Source: a virus (taxonomy: Duplodnaviria > Heunggongvirae > Uroviricota > Caudoviricetes). From it: a stretch of 9,984 bases of DNA. The stretch is from the IMG/VR virus record IMGVR_UViG_2740892442_000016, one strand, 5' to 3'. The translations under genes and the position numbers were made by a program. How positions within the stretch are numbered: position 1 is the first letter of the stretch; each line of letters opens with the position of its first letter. Of the stretch, positions 1 to 9,519 are shown piece after piece. The notes under the pieces were generated by a model, which made no database searches, was not told the origin of the DNA, and saw only the letters and a program-made list of their open reading frames with translations.

Positions 1-600
1 ATGCAAATTGGCTATATTCGTGTGTCAACAAACGACCAGAACACGGATTTACAACGCAATGCACTGAACTGCGCAGGATGTGAACTGATTTTTGAAGATA
101 AAATCAGCGGAACGAAATCAACCAGACCGGGATTGAAAAAACTGCTCAGAACGCTATCAGAAGGAGATACGCTGGTTGTCTGGAAGCTGGACAGACTGGG
201 CAGAAGTATGAAACACCTGATCACGCTTATTGAGGAATTGCGGGAAAAAGGTGTTAATTTCCGTAGTCTGACGGACAGCATTGACACGTCAACACCCATG
301 GGGCGTTTCTTTTTTCACGTCATGGGGGCTTTAGCCGAAATGGAACGTGAATTAATTGTAGAACGTACACTGGCCGGGCTGGCAGCAGCACGCGCACAAG
401 GACGCATTGGCGGACGTCGCCCGAAGTTGACAAAAGAACAACACGAGCAAATAGCAAGGCTGATTAAAAACGGTCATGACAGGAAACAACTGGCGATCAT
501 TTACGACATCGGCATATCGACGATTTATCGTTATCACCCTGTAGGCGATATACAGGCTGAAGCAACAACCAGGCAGACTCAGGAAAATGAAAACCGCTAA
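1..600 (+). CDS. Serine recombinase, DNA invertase of the Hin/Gin/Pin/Cin family
   Basis: 199-aa ORF starting MQIGYIRVSTNDQNTDLQRNAL with the catalytic-serine N-terminus, the GDTLVVWKLDRLGRS and MGRFFFHVMGALAEMERELI blocks and a C-terminal helix-turn-helix (GRIGGRRPKLTKEQHEQI), all matching my recollection of Hin/Pin. Confidence 0.9.
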   Translation: MQIGYIRVSTNDQNTDLQRNALNCAGCELIFEDKISGTKSTRPGLKKLLRTLSEGDTLVVWKLDRLGRSMKHLITLIEELREKGVNFRSLTDSIDTSTPMGRFFFHVMGALAEMERELIVERTLAGLAAARAQGRIGGRRPKLTKEQHEQIARLIKNGHDRKQLAIIYDIGISTIYRYHPVGDIQAEATTRQTQENENR

Positions 601-619
601 TCTGACCATTAGCGGTTTT
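590..619. terminator. Perfect 11-bp inverted repeat (AAAACCGCTAA / TTAGCGGTTTT) with 8-nt loop between the convergent invertase and U genes; likely bidirectional terminator
   Basis: Seen directly: stem 590-600 and 609-619, loop 601-608; A-run before and T-run after. The invertase stop codon lies in the left arm. Confidence 0.45.
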
Positions 620-626
620 GCGTTAA

Positions 627-1121
627 TCAAAACAGCCCTTTAACGGAGCTGACCGCGCTGTTAAGGGATGATGTGACCTTATCTTTGAAGCCGGACAGCA
701 TATCACTGAACGATGAGGATTGCAGGCGCTCCCGCAAATCCTCATCACAGCGTTCAAGGGTCAGTGAAAATTCTATCTTTTTCGCCTTACCGTAGCGATC
801 AAACTCGGAACGGGTCGTATTCGTTTCGGTCAGGACATACATGCCGTAAATCTGCCCGACACCATCAATCAGAGGCCAGGGGCGTCCTGTATATGCCTGC
901 GTGGTCAGCAACGAAAGCGACACTTCGCCACCTGTAATTTCAGGATAAAGCACGCCTGAAAGCACGATGCGATCATCACCTGCACCGATATACTGCCAGC
1001 TTGCTGAACGGTTAACGCGTTCATTTTTCACATGCCGCCAGCTTTTGCTTTGCTGTAACTGCTGATGCGGCAACGTGCGCAGCTCAAAAACAAACATGCC
1101 GTAGATCATCATCATGGCCAT
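627..1121 (-). CDS. U: Phage tail protein U (P2 gpU / Mu N-like)
   Basis: 164-aa ORF directly after the tape measure gene (T stop 1128-1130, U ATG 1121-1119, GAGGAG RBS inside the T 3' end); N-terminus MMMIYGMFVFEL...LSGVLYPEITGG resembles gpU as recalled. Confidence 0.8.
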   Translation of the reverse strand: MAMMMIYGMFVFELRTLPHQQLQQSKSWRHVKNERVNRSASWQYIGAGDDRIVLSGVLYPEITGGEVSLSLLTTQAYTGRPWPLIDGVGQIYGMYVLTETNTTRSEFDRYGKAKKIEFSLTLERCDEDLRERLQSSSFSDMLSGFKDKVTSSLNSAVSSVKGLF

Positions 1122-1127
1122 GACTCC

Positions 1128-4049
1128 TCAATCTTTATCGTAAAAACTGCCACGCCCGGCACGGGCGCGCCGTTCCATTTCTGCCCTGACCATTTCACCG
1201 ACCAGTTTCGCCAGTTCGCGGGGATTCTGCGTAACAACGTTATGCAGATGAACATGAATTTCACCACCAAATCCGGAGGCAACAGGCTCCCGGTTACGGG
1301 AAGTTACAGGAACTGATGCCACTGGCGATCGTATGGCCTCCGCCACCGGGCGGGAGCTGGCCGCAACAACAGGGACCAGCGCCGGAGGCAGCGGAGCCGG
1401 GACCACGGGTGTGATATTAATTGCGGGGGCAGGCTTACTGACCTGCGCAATCTTCCGCTCCTGCCACTCCCCACCAGGGACCAGCGCCAGAGGCAGCGGA
1501 GCAGGGACCACGGGTGTGATATTAATTGCGGAGGCAGGCTTACTGACCTGCGCAATCTTCCGCTCCTGCCACTCCCCACGAACGGCAAGTGCGCGGGGCA
1601 GGTTCTTAAAGACAATATCACCGGGGCCAATGCGTTTTTTCGTCTCATCAACCAGCTTACCTGTGTTATCAGCAATTTTGCTGAGTCTGCGTAGCGTACC
1701 GGTATTGCTGTCTGTGAGCGGTTTGTTGTCTTTGGGTTTATCGCCTCCGGTGCCATTGCCATTTTCCGCAGACTTCGGCGGATTGATTTTCGCAAGGTCT
1801 CCCTGAAACAGAGCAACCTTGTCCTGAAGAATGGCCGCACGCTGTGCGTCTTCAATTTTCTTGCGCGCCCTTTCCGCTTCATCCGGAAGGACACCAAGTT
1901 TTTCAAGTATCCACGCCAGCGTATCCAGTAGCATTTTTGCAGGTGTCAGAACAAGCTGTAACGCACCGCCAAGAACGTTACCGAATATCTCGCCAGCACT
2001 GGTACATTTATCCAGCGTTTCCTTGCTGGACTCCATCGGTGACAGCAGCGATTTAAACCAGTTAAAGACCTGAATAATCCCATCGCGCACGACATCAAAA
2101 ACAGGACCGAACCGTTCAAAGGTTTCGCGCAACGGAGCCAGTCGTTCCATAATCCCGTTGAACACCCCGATATAAAACGCCTTGATGGGTTCCCAGTATT
2201 TCCAGATGAGAACTGCCGCAGCCACAAACGCGGCAACAATCAATCCGACCGGACTGAACAGCGCCCCGATAGCGCCACCCAGCAACGAGATGGAACCTGT
2301 TACCATTCCCCATAGTGCTGGCAGCACCCTGACGACATTCATTGATCCTGTCAGGAGAGAAAAACCGAGACGTAACGTAGCCAGCTTCCCGTGAAGCACC
2401 CCAATAACCAGAGACAACGAACCAACCGTTGCTGTTGTCGCCAGCAGTGCGCCTCCCGCTATCAGTAACTGGCGCGTCAGTACCGGATGGGCCTGCGCCA
2501 GCGCCGTCACCTTTGAGACCACCCGCGTGAGCCACTGCGTGACAGAACGCAGCGGACCGTCAATCAGATCTGCAATGCGGATGCGCAACCCTTCCCATGC
2601 ACTGCCGAGTGATTTCAGATCGCCATCAAGGTTGTTGGCCATAACCTTTGCCGTGCGTTCAGCCTCACCGCGTGCGCCCTCAAGTTCTTTTCTCAGTTTG
2701 GGTAAGGAACCGTCACCCGCCGCATCAACGAGTGCCATAAACGATGTGAAAGCCTCTTCCCCGGCGATGTCCTTAAAGAAGGATACCCGGTCAACTTCCC
2801 CGTATTTGCGGGTAGCTTTATAAAGGTCAGCCAGCAGATCTTCCATCGGGCGCATTTTGCCCCCGGCATCCGAGACGGACACGCCCAGCTCTTTCAGAGC
2901 TTCTGCCGCCGCCTTTGGCGGTGATGCCAGACGAGCCAGGCTGGCACGCATTGCCGTCCCGGCATCACTCCCTCTGATGCCCATATTCGCCAGCACGCCC
3001 GCCATCGCTGCGGCCTGCTCCAGCGATATCCCCAGCTTACCCGCCACCGGACCGGCATATTTCATGGTTTCGCCCAGTGCGCGAAGGTCAGTGTTGGTAC
3101 GGGTAAACGCTGCGGTGAGTGTGTCTCCGACCCGGTCCATCTGGTCAGCAGAAAGGCCGAACTGCGTCAGGATATTTGAGCCAATATCTGCCGTCTCGCC
3201 GAGATCCATACCGCCAGCCGTTGCCATGCTCAGTACGCCGGGAAGCGCAGCCTGAATGGCCTGCGGAGTGAAGCCTGCCATTGCAAGAAATGCCTGCCCA
3301 CTGGCGGCATCGCCTGCGGTGAACTGCGTTTCAGAGCCAAGTTTTAACGCCTGCTCACGCAGCGCCTTAAACTGCGGGCTGTTTTTGTCGATTCGCGTCA
3401 GTGCCTGAACGCGGGACATCTCTTTCCCGAACCCGATCGCAGGCTGCAAAAAACGCCCGGCAGCATAGCCGCCAGCCGCTGCCGCACCAATTGCCAGCGC
3501 ACCACCTGTTTTCAGTTTTCCTGCTGTTTCCTGCGCGCGCGAATACCGCTCACGCGCACGCGTTACACGCGCAAGCGCCTGCCGTTCGCGTTCAAGCTGA
3601 TTGTTGTACTGTTCGGTGCGTCTGATAGCCTGCTGGATGGTGTTATCGCTGCCTGTCAGGGAAATGCCGTGGCGTTTCAGCTCTCCGCCAAGCTCCCGCA
3701 TTTTCTGAATTTCCCGTGTGCGCGATTCATTCAGGCGTTCAAGCCGGGTGCTTAACTGCTGCATCAGCTTTTGTTGTTTTTCGCTGAGCACTGTACCCGT
3801 GCGTTGTAACTGATTAAGGGCGTTAAGCTGGCGTCGTGCTTTCACGATGCCAGCATCCGCTTTACTGACAGCGTCACGGGCGCGCTCAAATGAACGCGCC
3901 TGACGCTCGAGATTTTTGATCGCCCCCTGCGTTCGCTGGATGGAGTCACCAAACTGCCCCATCAGACGGCGGGCGTTTTCGGCAGGCCGGGTCAGCCTGT
4001 CAACGGCGCTGAAAGCGACCCGGATATCAAGAGTCTTCATTGTCTGCAT
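1128..4049 (-). CDS. T: Tail tape measure protein (P2 gpT-like)
   Basis: Long ORF, about 970-980 aa, with coiled-coil-like N-terminal part, Ala/Gly-rich hydrophobic middle and a Pro-rich C-terminal part; sits between E/E' and U. Start uncertain: ATG at 4049 or 4040, or GTG at 4076; the E+E' product overlaps the start as in P2. Confidence 0.85.
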   Translation of the reverse strand: MQTMKTLDIRVAFSAVDRLTRPAENARRLMGQFGDSIQRTQGAIKNLERQARSFERARDAVSKADAGIVKARRQLNALNQLQRTGTVLSEKQQKLMQQLSTRLERLNESRTREIQKMRELGGELKRHGISLTGSDNTIQQAIRRTEQYNNQLERERQALARVTRARERYSRAQETAGKLKTGGALAIGAAAAGGYAAGRFLQPAIGFGKEMSRVQALTRIDKNSPQFKALREQALKLGSETQFTAGDAASGQAFLAMAGFTPQAIQAALPGVLSMATAGGMDLGETADIGSNILTQFGLSADQMDRVGDTLTAAFTRTNTDLRALGETMKYAGPVAGKLGISLEQAAAMAGVLANMGIRGSDAGTAMRASLARLASPPKAAAEALKELGVSVSDAGGKMRPMEDLLADLYKATRKYGEVDRVSFFKDIAGEEAFTSFMALVDAAGDGSLPKLRKELEGARGEAERTAKVMANNLDGDLKSLGSAWEGLRIRIADLIDGPLRSVTQWLTRVVSKVTALAQAHPVLTRQLLIAGGALLATTATVGSLSLVIGVLHGKLATLRLGFSLLTGSMNVVRVLPALWGMVTGSISLLGGAIGALFSPVGLIVAAFVAAAVLIWKYWEPIKAFYIGVFNGIMERLAPLRETFERFGPVFDVVRDGIIQVFNWFKSLLSPMESSKETLDKCTSAGEIFGNVLGGALQLVLTPAKMLLDTLAWILEKLGVLPDEAERARKKIEDAQRAAILQDKVALFQGDLAKINPPKSAENGNGTGGDKPKDNKPLTDSNTGTLRRLSKIADNTGKLVDETKKRIGPGDIVFKNLPRALAVRGEWQERKIAQVSKPASAINITPVVPAPLPLALVPGGEWQERKIAQVSKPAPAINITPVVPAPLPPALVPVVAASSRPVAEAIRSPVASVPVTSRNREPVASGFGGEIHVHLHNVVTQNPRELAKLVGEMVRAEMERRARAGRGSFYDKD
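1371..1580. repeat. In-frame 105-bp tandem duplication (2 copies, 4 mismatches) inside the tape measure gene
   Basis: Copy 1 at 1371-1475 and copy 2 at 1476-1580 align base by base; they encode a repeated 35-aa unit GEWQERKIAQVSKPA(S/P)AINITPVVPAPLP(L/P)ALVP. Confidence 0.9.
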
Positions 4050-4556
4050 TCCCGCTGCGAAGTGCCGCCCGCTCACGCCAGCTAACCACTTCGCCGGGCG
4101 TCATCATGAAGATTTCGGCGGGCGACCAGTTAAAAATAACGGCAATATCTGCCACAAAGTCTTCTATGTGCTCAAAGCACACAACCGTGATCAGGCTTCC
4201 GTCGCCTGTTCGTTCTTCCCGCCAGAGTCCGCACCGCTCAAAAAATTTACGGCAACCACACATAACTGAATAAAGTCACGGGATGCCATTTTTTTGATCG
4301 TCACTTCATCCAGTCGCGGTGATGTCACGCGTGACAGCAGCGTAAACATGGATTCCGCTTTCAGATTCAGCACATCAGACAACGACAAATCTCGCAGAGA
4401 TCCAGCCTGCTCAATAGCTCCGGTGATCTCCACATACGTGATTTTTTCGCCGCCTCGCTCAATTGGTTGGGTAAGTTTTACGCCACGCTCACTGGTTTCT
4501 TTCACAGTGTCAGTAACTACCGTGTTTTCGGTATCGATGTTTTTCGTCTCTTTCAT
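4027..4556 (-). CDS. E+E': E+E' fusion made by programmed -1 ribosomal frameshift at 4245-4239; about 176 aa, overlapping the start of T
   Basis: Minus-strand heptamer T_TTT_TTG is in the E zero frame (codons AAT TTT TTG = N F L). The -1 frame is open from 4275 to the stop at 4029-4027 and reads KFFERCG... after the slip. Confidence 0.65.
4191..4556 (-). CDS. E: Tail assembly chaperone (P2 gpE-like), zero-frame product
   Basis: 121-aa ORF between FII and T with AAAGGAG RBS 8 nt upstream of the ATG at 4556; contains the slippery heptamer near its 3' end. Confidence 0.7.
   Translation of the reverse strand: MKETKNIDTENTVVTDTVKETSERGVKLTQPIERGGEKITYVEITGAIEQAGSLRDLSLSDVLNLKAESMFTLLSRVTSPRLDEVTIKKMASRDFIQLCVVAVNFLSGADSGGKNEQATEA
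4239..4245 (-). other. Slippery heptamer TTTTTTG for the E/E' -1 frameshift
   Basis: Seen in sequence; it is the same heptamer I recall for the P2 E/E' frameshift site. Confidence 0.6.
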
Positions 4557-4610
4557 CAGGAAACTCCTTTCAGTCAGAGGCGACGCACTGCGCCGCCTGC
4601 ATATTACTTA

Positions 4611-5123
4611 TCAGCCAAGCCCAAGCGCGGAACGGATACGGTCAGGCACAATGTCCTTGCCGTCCTTCCGGTAAATGAAGTTCAGCAGGTCAATCTCCCA
4701 CAACGGGCGATCGTTAACACTCAGCTTGTAGTAGGTGTTTTTAATGGCGTAAGTGTGTGATGTGGCTTCGCCCTGTTTGGCTTCCCCCATATCAATTTCC
4801 GTCACACGTCCGCGCATTTCGACTTCATACAGGTCGCTTTCTGCATCGGTGTAGTATTCACCCGCAAAACGCAGCAGCGTGCCGTCAATCGTGCCGCCAT
4901 ACTTAAGGAACAGCTCACGAACTGCGCCCCCCATGACAAAGCTCGCATCAAGCGCGGAGTCGTCCAGACCGAGATCAATACTTACCGCACCCATCATGCC
5001 ACCACCCCGGTAGCTGTCGGTTTTGCGCGTCAGTTTAGGCAGAGTGACGGACGTCACCTTACCCACTTCGTTTTCACCATCCACAAACAGCGTAAAAAAG
5101 CGAAGATGTTTTGGTACAGCCAT
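4611..5123 (-). CDS. FII: Major tail tube protein (P2 gpFII-like)
   Basis: 170-aa ORF starting MAVPKHLRFFTLFVDG...VTSVTLPKLTRK; its ATG overlaps the sheath stop in a TGATG junction at 5121-5125. Confidence 0.85.
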   Translation of the reverse strand: MAVPKHLRFFTLFVDGENEVGKVTSVTLPKLTRKTDSYRGGGMMGAVSIDLGLDDSALDASFVMGGAVRELFLKYGGTIDGTLLRFAGEYYTDAESDLYEVEMRGRVTEIDMGEAKQGEATSHTYAIKNTYYKLSVNDRPLWEIDLLNFIYRKDGKDIVPDRIRSALGLG

Positions 5124-6306
5124 CAGGCACCTCCCAGCACCGCAAATGCGGGACCAAAGAATTCATCAGTAAACGACTGGTAAAGCTCCATGTCTTCCAG
5201 CGGGGGAACTGGCGTATATTTGTAGCGAATACGCACACGTCCCTGACGTAAACCCGTGGTGCTGTTATCCACCACGTCATACCAGCACTCCGCGCCAATC
5301 AGTTTCCCGGCAGTAACCAGTGAATCCAGTTTTGCCCTGATGGCACTGATAACATCCTTCACGTTCGCAGGCGTCAGTGGACTGTCGATGGTTTCAAACT
5401 GCGCTTCCGCAATTGAATCAGCCAGCACCTGTGCGGTTCGGGTATACACCTCAAAGATGTAGGCGTTCGTTTCCGGTGTGCGGTTGCCCCAGAAGCGGAA
5501 CCCGTTACGACGAATAATGGTCGTGATTTCTTTGTTGTTAAGGCTGTTGGCATCGCTGTCTTCGGCCTGCAACGACCAGAACACATGCCGGGACATCCCC
5601 AGCACATTTTTAACCGGAACGTTGGACAGTGATTTGTGCCAGCCCTGCTCATGGTCAATGTACGCACGAAGGCCGCACGCATAAGCAGGCGCGGGGAACG
5701 TTTCGTTTTTGCCACTTTTCGGGTTGTAGGCGATGAAGTCCGGCCATAAGAGCATCACCTCACGTTCGTTGAATTTCTGGCGGTAGGTAATTGCCTCTGC
5801 CATCGTGTTACAGCCATGACATGAGGCATACACAAACGCGCGCAGTTTACCCGCAATCACGCACAGGGATTTTGTCACCGCCTCCGTGTCCAGCTCCGGC
5901 GCGGCCAGAATACGCGGACGGTATCCGATGCTTTCATCCTGCTCTGCAACAAGCAGCGCATACATCCCCGTATAGCTGCCGTCAGATTCAGAACCACCGA
6001 TAACCAGTTGATCCTGCGTCTTTCCGTTTTCTTCTTTGTGTTCAGCCACGCGAACGACGATCACCTTTGTGCTCACCTGGTCTGCGATGGCCTTAAGCGC
6101 ACGATAAAGCGTCCCCGTTGTCCCGCATTTTCCCAGCACGTCATTGACGCGGGTCAGCAGTGTGGCTTGTTCAGCGGGAACAGCTTCGCGTCCGCATCAT
6201 CCGCCGTTGCCACGATACCGATAACGCTGGAATCAACATCGTTAATCGCTGTTACCAGGTCGGTACTTTCCGTAACACGGGCACCATGAAAACGAGTTTC
6301 ACTCAT
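5123..6306 (-). CDS. FI: Tail sheath protein (P2 gpFI-like), interrupted by an apparent 1-nt frameshift near 6157-6165; possible pseudogene or sequencing error
   Basis: ATG at 6306 gives MSETRFHGARVTE...DADAKLFPLNKPHC then TGA at 6156-6154. The rest of the sheath (LLTRVNDVLGKCGTTGTLYRALKAIADQ... to the stop at 5123) continues in another frame that opens after 6196. Combined length of about 393 codons matches a full sheath. Confidence 0.8.
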
Positions 6307-6463
6307 AGCTTCAGCCCCTTGTATCCGTTAAATGATTCGGCAACAATCATCACCCACCACGCGCGTAATCTCACCCCTGCGCCGTTCTCCCGCCACGGCG
6401 ACAACAAAAAGCAGTAACCCCCTCCGCACGCACATGCGACCATGCCGCACAGGGAGGGAGCAG

Positions 6464-7573
6464 ATGACCGACACCACCATGCAATTGCTCAGTCAGGGCA
6501 CAGACACCGTGAAAATGCCGGATTTTGATATTCTCGCGGAGGGTAAAACGCTGTCAGGCGTGGCAGAGCGCCTGATGAGCCTGTCACTGACCGACAACCG
6601 GGGATTTGAGGCGGACCAGCTCACCATCACGCTGGATGATGCGGATGGTCAGTTGCAGCTACCGCCACGGGGCGCGCGCCTGACGGTTCTCATTGGCTGG
6701 AAGGGAGAACCGCTGACAGAAAAAGGCACTTACATTGTTGATGAAATCGCTCACGAAGGACCGCCGGACAGGCTGACTGTTTCAGCCAGAAGCGCAGATT
6801 TTCGGGATGAATTTAACGTTAAACGTGAGGTGTCCTGGCATGATGTGACCGTTGAGCGTGTGGTATCCGCCATCGCTCATCGGTATGGTCTGAAACCGCA
6901 AATCAGCGAAATGCTGATGGATATCGAAATCGACCACGCCGACCAGACCGAAGAAAGCGACATGTCCTTCCTTACGCGCATGGCGGAAATGCTGGGCGCA
7001 ATCACCACGGTAAAAAGCGGCAATCTGTTATTCATCATGCCAGGTGGTGGCGTGAACGCACAGGGCCAGCCGTTGCCCTCGTTCGCCATTACACGCAGCA
7101 GCGGCGATCGCCATCAGTTCCGCATTGCTGACCGCGAGGCGTATACGGGGGTACGCGCCTACTGGCTTGATCTTAATTACGGGAAAAAGAAAAAAGTCAG
7201 CGTGAAACGCCGTAAACCGCCAAAACCCAAAAAGGAGAAAAGCAGCAGCCGTGAAGGTGATTATATGGAAGGCGCGGAAGGCAATGTGTTTGTGTTACGC
7301 AAGACTTATCAGAACGAGCAGGCAGCAAGACGCGCAGCGGCGGCAAAGTGGCAGCAGCTACAACGCGGAGCCGCATCATTCTCCATCACGCTGGCATGTG
7401 GTCGTGCAGAACTCTACCCCGAAATGCATGGCACGGTAACAGGATTTAAAAGCGAGATTGATAATCAGGACTGGATTATTGCAAAAGCCGAGCACACCAT
7501 CGATAACAGCGGCTTTACCACGCAGCTTGAGCTTGAGGCAAAAATCTCGGAATGGATAGCAGAAACAGAGTGA
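6464..7573 (+). CDS. D: Phage tail protein D (P2 gpD / late control D family)
   Basis: ORF with AGGGAGGGAG RBS at 6451-6460 and ATG at 6464. Motifs SLTDNRGFEADQL, SARSADFRDEF, ESDMSFLTRMAE and YTGVRAYW fit the gpD family as recalled. The open frame runs upstream to 6332 but has no RBS there. Confidence 0.85.
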   Translation: MTDTTMQLLSQGTDTVKMPDFDILAEGKTLSGVAERLMSLSLTDNRGFEADQLTITLDDADGQLQLPPRGARLTVLIGWKGEPLTEKGTYIVDEIAHEGPPDRLTVSARSADFRDEFNVKREVSWHDVTVERVVSAIAHRYGLKPQISEMLMDIEIDHADQTEESDMSFLTRMAEMLGAITTVKSGNLLFIMPGGGVNAQGQPLPSFAITRSSGDRHQFRIADREAYTGVRAYWLDLNYGKKKKVSVKRRKPPKPKKEKSSSREGDYMEGAEGNVFVLRKTYQNEQAARRAAAAKWQQLQRGAASFSITLACGRAELYPEMHGTVTGFKSEIDNQDWIIAKAEHTIDNSGFTTQLELEAKISEWIAETE

Positions 7574-7615
7574 GCAACTTAGAATAGCAGCAGCACCACG
7601 TTAAGGGAGGTCGCT

Positions 7616-7876
7616 ATGTTCCGTTGTCCGCTTTGTGGCGCATCTGCCCGTATCCGCACCAGTCGTCCTGAAAATGATTCAAACACCGTGCGGCAAAAGT
7701 ATTACCAGTGTAACAACCTGGAATGCGGCGTATGCTTCTCAACACTGGAAGCTTTCCATAAATTCACATCAAAACACGCCTCCGGCGTTCACTCTTCAGA
7801 AGGTATCCCGTGGCATGAGCTGCCAGCTTCACACAGGGGAAACAATCAGATGAGTTTGCCTTTACCTCAGAATTAA
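7616..7876 (+). CDS. ogr: Ogr-type zinc-finger late transcription activator
   Basis: Starts MFRCPLCGASARIRTSR...YYQCNNLEC, giving the C-X2-C-X23-C-X4-C finger; AAGGGAGG RBS 5 nt upstream. At 86 aa it has a C-terminal extension relative to P2 Ogr (about 72 aa). Confidence 0.85.
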   Translation: MFRCPLCGASARIRTSRPENDSNTVRQKYYQCNNLECGVCFSTLEAFHKFTSKHASGVHSSEGIPWHELPASHRGNNQMSLPLPQN

Positions 7877-7885
7877 CAGGCAGAA

Positions 7886-7914
7886 TTGCCGGAGTAACAA
7901 AAAAGCGATAGATT
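7886..7914 (+). promoter_or_regulatory. Candidate sigma70 promoter for the toxin mRNA (TTGCCG, 17-bp spacer, TAGATT)
   Basis: Seen in sequence just after the ogr stop. It would place the transcript start near 7921, giving a leader of about 147 nt before the toxin ATG. Confidence 0.3.
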
Positions 7915-8067
7915 ACGCGCGGGTGCCTTTCGGCTGATGGTCGGAGGGAATACCCGAAGGCCAGATGTGGAAAGGCCCCGGAAAACATTTCTGTTTAACC
8001 GAGGCCCTAACATATCTACCTTAAGCAAGTGATAGGTTAGCGCCTCTCCAACAAAGGAGCAAGCGCT

Positions 8068-8208
8068 ATGTCGCAAAAATCGCTTACGGCCATCACGTTC
8101 TGCGTGACGGTAATCCTCATCATCTGGATGCTACACGGTTCGCTGTGTGAAATACGGATGAGCTTCTGGGGAGCGGAGTTTGCGGCGTTCTTACAGTGTA
8201 AGCAGTAA
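8068..8208 (+). CDS. Hok/Gef/PndA-family type I toxin (46 aa, single transmembrane helix)
   Basis: MSQKSLTAITFCVTVILIIWMLHGSLCEIRMSFWGAEFAAFLQCKQ: hydrophobic N-terminal helix followed by the SLCEIR and E-x-AAF-L-x-C-K motifs I recall from Hok and PndA; AAAGGAG RBS 8 nt upstream. Below the 60-aa cutoff of the ORF track. Confidence 0.65.
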   Translation: MSQKSLTAITFCVTVILIIWMLHGSLCEIRMSFWGAEFAAFLQCKQ

Positions 8209-8217
8209 GGAAACCGC

Positions 8218-8239
8218 GACGGGGGAGCAATCCCCCGTC
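8218..8239 (+). other. Stable stem-loop (9-bp GC-rich stem, GCAA tetraloop) directly after the toxin stop codon
   Basis: GACGGGGGA-GCAA-TCCCCCGTC seen in sequence; no U-tract follows, so it is more likely an mRNA structural element than a terminator. Confidence 0.4.
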
Positions 8240-8296
8240 AATCGGTTGCTAAGGTTGGCTGAAGTGGCACCCTATCTCACAGACATGAACAACAAA

Positions 8297-8328
8297 CCCG
8301 CAGCGTAAGAACTGCGGGTTTTCTTTTT
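8297..8328 (+). terminator. Rho-independent terminator (CCCGCAG stem, 8-nt loop, TTTTCTTTTT tail)
   Basis: Seen in sequence; would end the toxin transcript at a total length of roughly 400 nt. Confidence 0.6.
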
Positions 8329-8336
8329 GGAACTAT

Positions 8337-8364
8337 CACTAGCTAGTGTACCGTTAACGGCACA
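8337..8364. promoter_or_regulatory. Two overlapping palindromes: CACTAGCTAGTG (perfect 12-mer) and TGTaCCGTTAACGGcACA (matches the TGT-N12-ACA dyad)
   Basis: Seen in sequence. TGT-N12-ACA is the dyad I recall for Ogr/Delta-type late activators; no clear -10 element is placed correctly on either side, so function is unassigned. Confidence 0.3.
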
Positions 8365-8396
8365 TAATGCTCGCACAACAAACCTGTTAAAAGAGA

Positions 8397-8678
8397 TTAC
8401 TCAGCATTCTCCTGCTTCCATTGCCGGATCATTTCATCGGTAACATCACCCTCATAACATACCACGTCATACCCTCCATTACGGCTATATGCACTGCGTC
8501 CACCACATCTACTACCATTCCTTGCATGATTATAAGGACACGCACAATTGCCTGGATAAGATTCAATGGATTCTTTAATTATTTCTTTTTTGATCTGAGC
8601 ATCAGACTTTCCTGTTGCTGCATATCCGCTAAAAGATACTAAACAAAGGCAGATTGCCATTAATAAACCACATCGCAT
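8397..8678 (-). CDS. Hypothetical small secreted Cys-containing protein in an AT-rich cargo segment
   Basis: The ORF is open to 8792, but the likely start is the Met at 8678 that begins a signal-peptide-like stretch (MRCGLLMAICLCLVSFSGYAA, A-A before TGK). The mature part is about 70 aa with four Cys (GNCACPYNHARNGSRCGGRSAYSRNGGYDVVCYEG). Weak RBS; local AT content is clearly higher than in the flanking phage genes. Family not recognised. Confidence 0.45.
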   Translation of the reverse strand: MRCGLLMAICLCLVSFSGYAATGKSDAQIKKEIIKESIESYPGNCACPYNHARNGSRCGGRSAYSRNGGYDVVCYEGDVTDEMIRQWKQENAE

Positions 8679-8910
8679 ACCGATACACTCTATTACTAAC
8701 CAATCATAGTCCACATCATAAAATCGAGATGAGGAGTACAATACCTTTAACAAGAAGGTGTCATAACGATAATATGTCGTGCAATTCATCAAAAAAAAGA
8801 TCTATATCAAAGAGATAGAACTCTTATCAGTGCTTCAGACATCGGCATTCGAGGCAGCAGAAAAACAGTAAATTTGACGAATTTGCCTTTTCCCAAGATG
8901 TTGTCAGATT

Positions 8911-9064
8911 AAAAAGATAGATTAGCGCAGGTACCTGTTGGTGGATTGCAGGAGGAAAAATGAAGTCGAGTGGAAAAATCCCAGAAAAATTTTTGTTTAA
9001 CAGAGGTCCTGGTTCACTATGCGAAATACGGAGGAGCTGCAGAAGAATTCTGCTTCATCCTTAG
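8911..9064 (+). pseudogene. Internally deleted paralog of the toxin locus (promoter -10, leader and toxin C-terminal segment retained; toxin transmembrane region missing)
   Basis: 8911-8935 resembles 7900-7927 (AAAAAG..ATAGATTA..GCGCAGGTACC), 8970-9010 resembles 7967-8008, and 9011-9042 resembles 8137-8170; the 128 bp between the last two in the intact copy (8009-8136) are absent. The remaining ORF (ATG 8960, stop 9062-9064) reads MKSSGKIPEKFLFNRGPGSLCEIRRSCRRILLHP. Confidence 0.45.
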
Positions 9065-9140
9065 AGTTTAAACAGCACGTGCACTACCATTGTTTCTGCA
9101 TATCGCCACACCATCGCCACTCAACCGCCATTGCACAAAA

Positions 9141-9173
9141 TACAAATACAAAAAAACCACCCGAAGGTGGTTT
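9141..9173 (-). terminator. Rho-independent terminator of the glyW-cysT-leuZ tRNA operon
   Basis: Plus-strand ACCACC-CGAA-GGTGGT hairpin (9156-9171); on the minus strand it is followed by TTTTTGTATTTG, about 45 nt past the leuZ 3' end. Confidence 0.6.
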
Positions 9174-9216
9174 CACGACACTGCTTATTGCTTTGATTTT
9201 ATTCTTATCTTTCCCA

Positions 9217-9303
9217 TGGTACCCGGAGCGGGACTTGAACCCGCACAGCGCGAACGCCGAGGGATTTTAAATCCCTTGTGTCTACCGATTCCACCATCCG
9301 GGC
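9217..9303 (-). tRNA. leuZ: tRNA-Leu (anticodon UAA), 87 nt, CCA encoded
   Basis: Reverse complement reads GCCCGGATGGTGGAATCGGTAGACACAAGGGATTTAAAATCCC...GGGTACCA: cloverleaf with long variable arm, matching E. coli leuZ as recalled. Confidence 0.92.
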
Positions 9304-9315
9304 TCGGGAAGAAAG

Positions 9316-9389
9316 TGGAGGCGCGTTCCGGAGTCGAACCGGACTAGACGGATTTGCAATCCGCTACATAACCGCTTTGTTAACGCGCC
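9316..9389 (-). tRNA. cysT: tRNA-Cys (anticodon GCA), 74 nt
   Basis: Reverse complement reads GGCGCGTTAACAAAGCGGTTATGTAGCGGATTGCAAATCCGTCTAGTCCGGTTCGACTCCGGAACGCGCCTCCA. Confidence 0.92.
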
Positions 9390-9442
9390 AAATTCTTCAG
9401 GCCTTTCAGCCAGACATCCGCTGACGCCGATGTCTTTTAAAC

Positions 9443-9519
<77 letters not shown>

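Follow-up and report, generated by a model that had tools for sequence, protein, structure and literature searches.

Flipped orientation of the sheath-to-U tail operon relative to D and ogr in a P88-like prophage

Gene order in the tail region

The stretch of viral DNA analyzed here (IMG/VR record IMGVR_UViG_2740892442_000016; 9,984 nucleotides (nt) in all, referred to as the window) carries the tail and late-control genes of a P2-like phage, but the genes from FI, which encodes the tail sheath, to U run in the opposite direction to D and ogr. Gene identities were established by a Pfam profile search, and the proteins were matched to those of P2 by blastp. The features of the tail region, with the strand in parentheses, are as follows.

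1-600 (+): serine DNA invertase of the Hin/Gin/Cin/Pin type, with the catalytic Ser9 (Pfam Resolvase and HTH_7)
590-619 (both strands): hairpin AAAACCGCTAAT-N6-ATTAGCGGTTTT with a stem of 12 base pairs (bp), from a terminator scan
627-1121 (-): gpU tail protein, the last gene of the flipped operon (Pfam Phage_P2_GpU, 5e-39; 46% identity to P2 U)
1128-4076 (-): gpT tape measure (Pfam PhageMin_Tail)
4027-4556 (-): gpE and gpE+E' (Pfam Phage_P2_GpE on the frame 4027-4263; E open reading frame (ORF) 4191-4556; 32% identity to P2 E)
4611-5123 (-): gpFII tail tube (Pfam Phage_tube, 7.5e-47)
5123-6306 (-): gpFI tail sheath (Pfam sheath; ATG at 6306-6304; frame disrupted in the window)
6464-7573 (+): gpD, baseplate hub or late control D (Pfam Phage_GPD; 49% identity to P2 D; start in agreement with the P88 annotation)
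7616-7876 (+): Ogr/Delta-type zinc-finger late activator (Pfam Ogr_Delta, 52 bits against a cut-off of 26)

The Pfam matches are above the cut-off for all tail and late-control proteins except the N-terminal ORF of E. NCBIfam contributed nothing beyond Pfam, all its matches in the window being under the curated cut-offs. Homologs of gpFI, FII, E/E', T, U, D and Ogr, by which a P2-like (Peduoviridae) module is recognized, are all present. The window shares with the P2 F operon and with Fels-2 the same seven genes, at 32-49% protein identity (blastp expectation values against P2 from 1e-10 to 1e-122), as well as the slippery site of E/E', an Ogr-type activator and a site of the type TGT-N12-ACA about 82-88 nt ahead of FI. 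The slippery site, a P2-type -1 heptamer TTTTTTG at 4239-4245 on the minus strand, lies inside the overlap of the E and E' frames and is the predicted site of frameshifting. The real start of gpT is probably an ATG near 4040-4049. The ATG of D at 6464 is preceded by the Shine-Dalgarno sequence GGGAGGGAG.

The order in the window is invertase (+), U-T-E/E'-FII-FI (-), D-ogr (+). In the P2 and Fels-2 records FI-FII-E-E'-T-U-D-ogr are co-directional and the stop codon of U abuts the start of D. This co-directional arrangement is not found in the window, where FI to U are on the minus strand and D and ogr are on the plus strand. Thus D, which is the last gene of the F operon in P2 and Fels-2 and overlaps the U stop, forms together with ogr a separate rightward unit in the window. 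The FI-U block is also opposite in direction to the tail fiber genes H and G. A preliminary description of this DNA had reported that the block FI-FII-E-T-U is inverted relative to D-ogr. The Pfam identities and strands and the comparison with P2 and Fels-2 confirm this observation. The coordinates given there (end of U at 627, start of FI at 6306, D at 6464) are right, the sole slip being in the right-hand copy of a short repeat, which is discussed below.

The stop codons of the convergent invertase and U genes are at 598-600 and 627-629, respectively, and the 26-nt gap between them is filled by the hairpin at 590-619. Its calculated folding energy is -16.9 kcal/mol on the plus strand (z = -5.4) and -15.8 kcal/mol on the minus strand (z = -3.3), and on the strand of U it is followed by a T-rich run. 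The hairpin is kept in P88, in PhiR44_2 and in a further relative that extends further to the left (L002). It is likely to be a bidirectional intrinsic terminator that would end the FI-U operon.

The Ogr homolog at 7616-7876 has the finger spacing CX2CX24CX4C, compared to CX2CX22CX4C quoted for P2 Ogr, and carries a C-terminal extension of 30 amino acids (aa).

Occurrence of the flipped order

The window is 95.3% identical to P88 over 83% of its length. The matched positions, 7-8328, are in the same order, and the identity is 96.5% over 1472-8328. The same order is found in Xuanwuvirus P884B11, in Citrobacter phage phiSM, in PhiR44_2, whose record gives the host as E. coli C, and in Chuche. 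The P88/Xuanwuvirus phages, including phiSM and PhiR44_2, are 93-97% identical in nucleotide sequence over window positions 7-8330, and they share with the window the order of the invertase, the leftward U T E' E FII FI and the rightward D ogr, the same terminator hairpin, and an FI-D spacer that is identical save for 1-3 bases. PhiR44_2 and Chuche differ in being without the invertase gene. The phages SEN4/5 (Senquatrovirus) belong to another genus, and their D is only 63% identical. There is no invertase gene in these phages, only a 13-aa remnant. Their U...FI block is flipped and divergent from D, and a dyad-type site is present in the spacers of loci at similar divergence. The high nucleotide identity, the order U...FI (-), D (+) and the place in the clade of the D tree described below put the window in the P88-like lineage. 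It represents the right end of a prophage of this kind (Xuanwuvirus-type, Peduoviridae), situated beside genes for tRNA-Leu, -Cys and -Gly. As a member of this lineage the locus differs from the P2 type by a single defining feature, since it does not have the co-directional F operon to which D belongs.

The phages that have this order are functional. P88 is inducible by mitomycin, forms plaques with a burst size of about 65 and has a contractile tail (PMC5285337). phiSM forms plaques and lysogenizes K-12 (PMC6456863). SEN4/5 form plaques and have myovirus particles with contractile tails (PMC5261728). The preliminary description had itself named closely related functional phages with exactly this order as evidence that would speak against its interpretation. 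P88, phiSM and SEN4/5 are such phages, and that interpretation is only partly supported. The inversion relative to P2 is real, yet it is ancient, lineage-wide and compatible with function.

The window and P88 differ by a deletion of 1 nt in FI, by a duplication of 105 nt in T, and by their invertase alleles, which are only about 90% identical. The deletion leaves GG at 6164-6165, where P88 and L002 have GGG. The alignment of the FI region with these two has one gap column only (1184 nt in the window, 1185 nt in P88 and L002). The frame is shifted after about codon 47 and a stop is reached at codon 51. In the E. coli genomes nearest to the window the third G is present and the sheath gene is intact. 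Either this prophage is unable to make tails or the deletion is a homopolymer sequencing error. The duplication in gene T, at 1370-1579, is a tandem repeat (TRF period 105, 2.0 copies, 97% matches) that keeps the frame and adds 35 aa to the tape measure. The second copy is absent from P88 and L002. A ruler function of the tape measure, if it has one, would imply a slightly longer tail.

The orientation of the block was examined at the population level by searching 5,426 complete E. coli genomes with synthetic junctions of the P2 orientation, namely the 3' end of the invertase joined to the 5' end of FI, and the 3' end of U joined to the 5' end of D. Neither was spanned in any of the 5,426 genomes, although their halves matched in 1,533 and 1,413 genomes. 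The junctions observed in the window, which served as positive controls in the same genomes, were spanned in 621 (invertase/U) and 1,358 (FI/D). An invertible segment would be expected in both orientations, and populations carrying both, which the preliminary description had proposed to look for, are not seen among these genomes. The single orientation argues against a switching element and against an assembly artefact.

The spread beyond E. coli was surveyed with an alignment of D in one genome per species (185,579 species), which gave 306 loci. The best 80 were inspected and classed by what lies upstream of D. At each of the 48 loci with a D 61-98% identical to that of the window, FI is divergent from D. 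These flipped loci come from more than 20 genera of Enterobacterales, including Salmonella, Citrobacter, Enterobacter, Klebsiella, Kosakonia, Pantoea, Erwinia, Pectobacterium, Brenneria, Serratia, Edwardsiella, Yersinia, Hafnia, Providencia, Morganella, Xenorhabdus, Photorhabdus and Symbiopectobacterium. The other 32 loci, with D 47-54% identical, were classed as having the P2 order. U is positioned just upstream of D on the same strand in 31 of them, and the remaining one (L082), which gave no match to U, is a provisional assignment. In a neighbor-joining tree of D, which is unrooted, a single branch splits the 45 flipped from the 31 P2-order sequences analyzed. One old inversion, fixed in one lineage, is the simplest reading.

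The flipped order is thus already contained in published and annotated phage genomes, and the finding as originally posed is an ordinary one. The words inversion or rearrangement are not used for this block in the papers on P88, phiSM and SEN4/5 (PMC5285337, PMC6456863, PMC5261728). No description of the flipped order was found in the literature on Xuanwuvirus and on synteny in the Peduoviridae, the coverage of which was incomplete, and a paper on Xenorhabdus tailocins deals with tail fiber inversions only. The gene order of P2 is unfit as a template for all P2-like prophages. Members of a large branch with the flipped sheath-to-U operon occur in 1,358 of the 5,426 complete E. coli genomes, a quarter of them, and also widely among other Enterobacterales, and the flipped block should not be flagged as damage by annotators or by programs that call prophage integrity. 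The sole modestly new element is the putative bidirectional promoter described in the next section.

The spacer between FI and D

FI and D are separated by a spacer of 157 nt. Its features, in which PF denotes the promoter of the FI operon and PD that of D, are as follows.

6386-6403 (no strand): dyad TCTCCCGCCACGGCGACA for the late-promoter activator (Ogr-type), centered at 6394.5; TCT-N12-ACA, one mismatch to TGT-N12-ACA
6351-6346 (-): predicted PF -10 hexamer GATGAT, bases 44-49 to the left of the dyad center; predicted start near 6338-6339
6438-6443 (+): predicted PD -10 hexamer GACCAT with TGC before it, bases 44-49 to the right of the dyad center; predicted start near 6450

TGT-N12-ACA is the consensus of the Ogr-dependent late promoters of P2 (as cited in PMC3931495). 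There is no perfect copy of it in the FI-D spacer and one mismatch had to be allowed. The site of P2 PF itself also has one mismatch (TGT-N12-CCA). The distance from the dyad center to the ATG of FI is 88.5 nt in the window compared to 82.5 nt for P2 PF. Among 49 loci of the clade, 45 have a dyad with at most one mismatch 74-88 nt from the ATG of FI, while the rest of the spacer has diverged. The conservation of the dyad at a PF-like distance from FI implies that PF moved with the flipped block, and this places the right breakpoint between the PF activator site and D. The other junction of the flipped segment is past the stop codon of U. The inversion of about 5.7 kb proposed in the preliminary description therefore holds relative to P2 and Fels-2, with the PF promoter included in it. 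The reading of it as something notable or even harmful that befell this genome is not supported.

The arrangement of the promoters was analyzed by aligning 44 distinct spacers of the clade on the center of the dyad and scoring hexamers for the hallmark bases of a -10 element, A2 and T6. A hexamer with both bases is present at bases 44-49 from the dyad center in 43 of the 44 sequences on the side of FI and in 40 on the side of D. No other offset in the range 25-65 has such a hexamer in more than 12 of the 44 sequences, or in more than 7 if the side of D is taken alone. P2 PF has the same spacing between dyad and -10 element as the predicted PF of the window. The window shows the sequence features of an Ogr-dependent late promoter, namely a dyad about 55 nt upstream of the predicted start and a weak -35 region. 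A generic sigma-70 scan found nothing in the FI-D spacer, as expected for activator-dependent promoters.

The same geometry is known from the PP/PO region of P2, in which one dyad also lies between two divergent late units. According to the P2 GenBank record, a single activator-binding site serves pO and pP, and its dyad is centered 55.5 nt from each mapped start. The -10 hexamers of PP and PO begin 43-44 nt from the dyad center. The two regions differ in that the P2 site serves the terminase/portal and capsid genes, whereas that of the window would serve the sheath operon and D-ogr, and its starts are predicted. The dyad of the window is equidistant from two divergent -10 elements, both predicted, as would be required of a shared bidirectional activator site. 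There are just two copies of the extended motif GTTCT-N12-ACAACAAAA in the P88 genome, one in the divergent spacer between P and O and one in that between FI and D. The P88 group thus appears to possess two bidirectional regions of late control, a separate PV not being obvious. The P/O spacer of P88 (L005, 14152-14305) contains a single central dyad TCT-N12-ACA at 14216, which is 73 and 81 nt from the start codons.

From this geometry we infer that one Ogr site would drive divergent PF and PD transcripts starting near 6338-6339 and 6450, respectively. In the preliminary description the inversion was thought to strip D of its operon promoter. A conserved promoter-like arrangement sits ahead of D, so that D probably keeps a promoter. 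It appears moderately probable that the Ogr dyad of PF was co-opted after the ancestral flip as a two-way switch for the sheath operon and for the new D-ogr unit. If so, this would be a second bidirectional late promoter of the PP/PO style, created by rearrangement, and the FI-D spacer looks like a natural case of a late-promoter activator site reused both ways. The terminator scan reported no terminator-like site in the interval between D and ogr, which suggests that ogr is co-transcribed late with D. For this reason ogr would probably also gain late positive feedback from a two-way switch. In the P2 record one terminator is named for both the ogr transcript and the F operon, and it is from PF that ogr is reached by late read-through.

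A single perfect TGT-N12-ACA is present in the window. This site, TGTACCGTTAACGGCACA at 8347-8364, is outside the late genes and nearly palindromic. It is positioned just past the end of the P88 homology (8328), and a bidirectional hairpin adjoins it at 8294-8321. A stray Ogr-type site, a part of the attachment region and a chance occurrence are all conceivable, 2.3 copies being expected per window by chance.

Origin of the flip and remaining features of the window

The invertase gene adjoins the FI-U block, and its function has to be considered first. In L002 two gix-like crossover sites of 26 bp, TTCTCGTAAACCGAGGTTTTAGATAA, are present in inverted orientation at 234-263 and 2915-2944. They enclose a segment of roughly 2.65 kb with alternative C termini of the tail fiber and assembly genes in opposite orientation. 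The right site is about 50 bp ahead of the ATG of the invertase and would therefore sit just outside the window. A serine invertase with Ser9 next to inverted 26-bp sites that surround alternative fiber genes is the hallmark of the Hin/Gin/Cin-type systems, and the upstream segment has all of these. It resembles the G segment of Mu, the C segment of P1 and the P segment of e14 (Gin, Cin, Pin, Hin) in its neighboring recombinase, its inverted 26-bp sites and its alternative fiber genes. The system here flips the fiber segment of about 2.65 kb, whereas the 5.7-kb FI-U block is without such sites and has one orientation. No match to the 26-bp site with three or fewer mismatches was found in the window, where the best candidates have at least 10 mismatches of 26. 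The crossover core AAACCNNGGTTT is absent near both junctions of the block, which thus lacks the two inverted sites of an invertible segment. A third gix- or hix-like site at the block junctions was considered as well, and none was found in the window. The invertase serves the tail fiber segment just upstream of the window, not the FI-U block, and has no role today in how the tail block is oriented.

Remnants of the invertase are found between G and the stop codon of U in two relatives that have lost the gene: 20 aa of its C terminus in PhiR44_2 (L003, 5997-6056; expectation value 5e-6) and 13 aa in SEN5 (L087, 5030-5068; expectation value 0.02). Both are part of the C-terminal helix-turn-helix of the invertase. 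The remnants suggest that the fiber segment was deleted together with the invertase in these phages, and the invertase was probably already a neighbor of the block in the common ancestor of the clade. PhiR44_2 and SEN5 were considered as proof that the flip was independent of the invertase. This was rejected, because both keep remnants and show only that the present-day invertase is dispensable. The invertase of the window is about 90% identical in nucleotide sequence to the Hin genes of P1-like phages, and positions 7-1474, the region of the invertase and U, are about 90% identical to P88, in comparison with the 96.5% given above for 1472-8328. The allele points to a mosaic exchange.

It is highly probable that a single old inversion of PF-FI-FII-E/E'-T-U gave rise to the lineage-wide P88-like order, the shared-dyad promoter being part of this explanation. 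The ancestral layout would have resembled that of Fels-2, which has an invertase and an invertible fiber segment as the window lineage does, in the order H-G-(invertible segment)-invertase-FI...U-D-ogr. One flip of PF-FI...U in such an ancestor would give exactly the order of the window. The whole P2-like branch that comprises P88, SEN5 and their relatives would have inherited it since, and the order in the window is the normal one for this branch. The flipped operon would be read leftwards from PF and end at the hairpin 590-619, used also by the convergent invertase gene. D and ogr would have stayed in place and be read rightwards from PD by means of the dyad at 6386-6403 that PF also uses, while the neighboring invertase would switch only the alternative tail fiber genes. 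Several points weigh against this explanation. The start of PD and its dependence on Ogr are predicted from geometry and conservation, and the conservation counts are not independent events since the clade sequences are related. The predicted leader of D is short (about 14 nt) and the dyad has TCT, not TGT. The survey of the spread covers the best 80 of 306 D loci. The P2/Fels-2 order is taken as ancestral because of its wider spread and by comparison with other P2-like phages, and the tree is unrooted. The invertase remnants beside U in PhiR44_2 and SEN5 leave room for an ancestral role of the invertase.

A recent inversion private to this genome, possibly made by the invertase, would have cut D from its promoter and crippled the prophage. 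The order does differ from that of P2 and Fels-2, the invertase adjoins the block, an inverted repeat of 9 nt is present near both junctions, and the prophage is possibly defective, FI being frameshifted. This is nevertheless extremely unlikely. Functional phages, 1,358 E. coli genomes and members of more than 20 other genera have the identical order, and none of the 5,426 E. coli genomes has the other orientation. The frameshift in FI is an unrelated 1-nt deletion that the nearest relatives do not have, and the best matches to the 26-bp crossover site have 10 or more mismatches. The 9-nt repeat noted in the preliminary description does exist, but its right copy, TCCGTTAAA, is at 6324-6332, not 6325-6333, and its left copy, TTTAACGGA at 639-647, is inside the coding sequence of U. 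It does not extend to 10 nt, and a comparable repeat occurs in 5% of shuffled sequences and in 8% of random window pairs of the same size, that is, at chance level. A wrong orientation of the 5.7-kb block in the assembly has a still smaller, almost negligible probability. Nothing specific speaks for it, except that inverted blocks between repeats can be mis-assembled, but there are no long inverted repeats at the junctions, and both junctions recur with 99-100% identity in independent complete genomes and phage records. Candidates for long inverted repeats flanking the block were sought among the 25 longest of 117 pairs; none was found, and these 25 look like chance matches.

Two further explanations accept that the inversion is old and fixed. 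The flip might have been catalyzed by a Hin-family invertase at quasi crossover sites in a Fels-2-like ancestor. In Fels-2 the invertase is directly ahead of PF-FI. The invertase or its C-terminal remnant abuts the end of U even in SEN5 and PhiR44_2, which places one breakpoint exactly where the invertase gene ends. Quasi-sites are used by Cin and Gin, albeit at low frequency. However, two quasi-sites would have been required, since both true sites are located across the invertase gene from the block, no site similarity is left over at either junction, and illegitimate recombination explains the event equally well. After a protein divergence of 40-50% nothing diagnostic remains, and only a slim chance is given to an origin by the invertase. 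Alternatively, D might have an independent promoter unrelated to the PF dyad, either a constitutive sigma-70 promoter or one with the early logic of ogr. Some members of the clade have a fair -35 element (TTGTCT), a 17-nt spacer and AATCAT, which might work without the activator, and P2 ogr has its own activator-independent promoter according to the P2 record. On the other hand, the -10-like element is at a fixed offset of 44-49 from the dyad across diverged spacers, mirroring the side of FI and P2 PP/PO, and the window has a poor -35 region (GTAACC), a typical property of late promoters that depend on an activator. An independent promoter of D is hence unlikely, though less so than a flip made by the invertase, and the shared dyad is preferred.

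The region to the right of ogr contains the following tRNA genes, and an Rfam scan of the window found these three tRNAs and nothing else.

9217-9518 (-): tRNA-Leu, -Cys and -Gly

A hok/gef-like region at about 7900-8272 is 84% identical to the hok regions of Stx phages. It is separated from tRNA-Leu by a stretch of low GC content (36-42%) at 8330-9200, in which an ORF at 8397-8792 (-) has no Pfam match. The low-GC stretch is found in E. coli genomes, but not in P88, and may be cargo or the end of the prophage.

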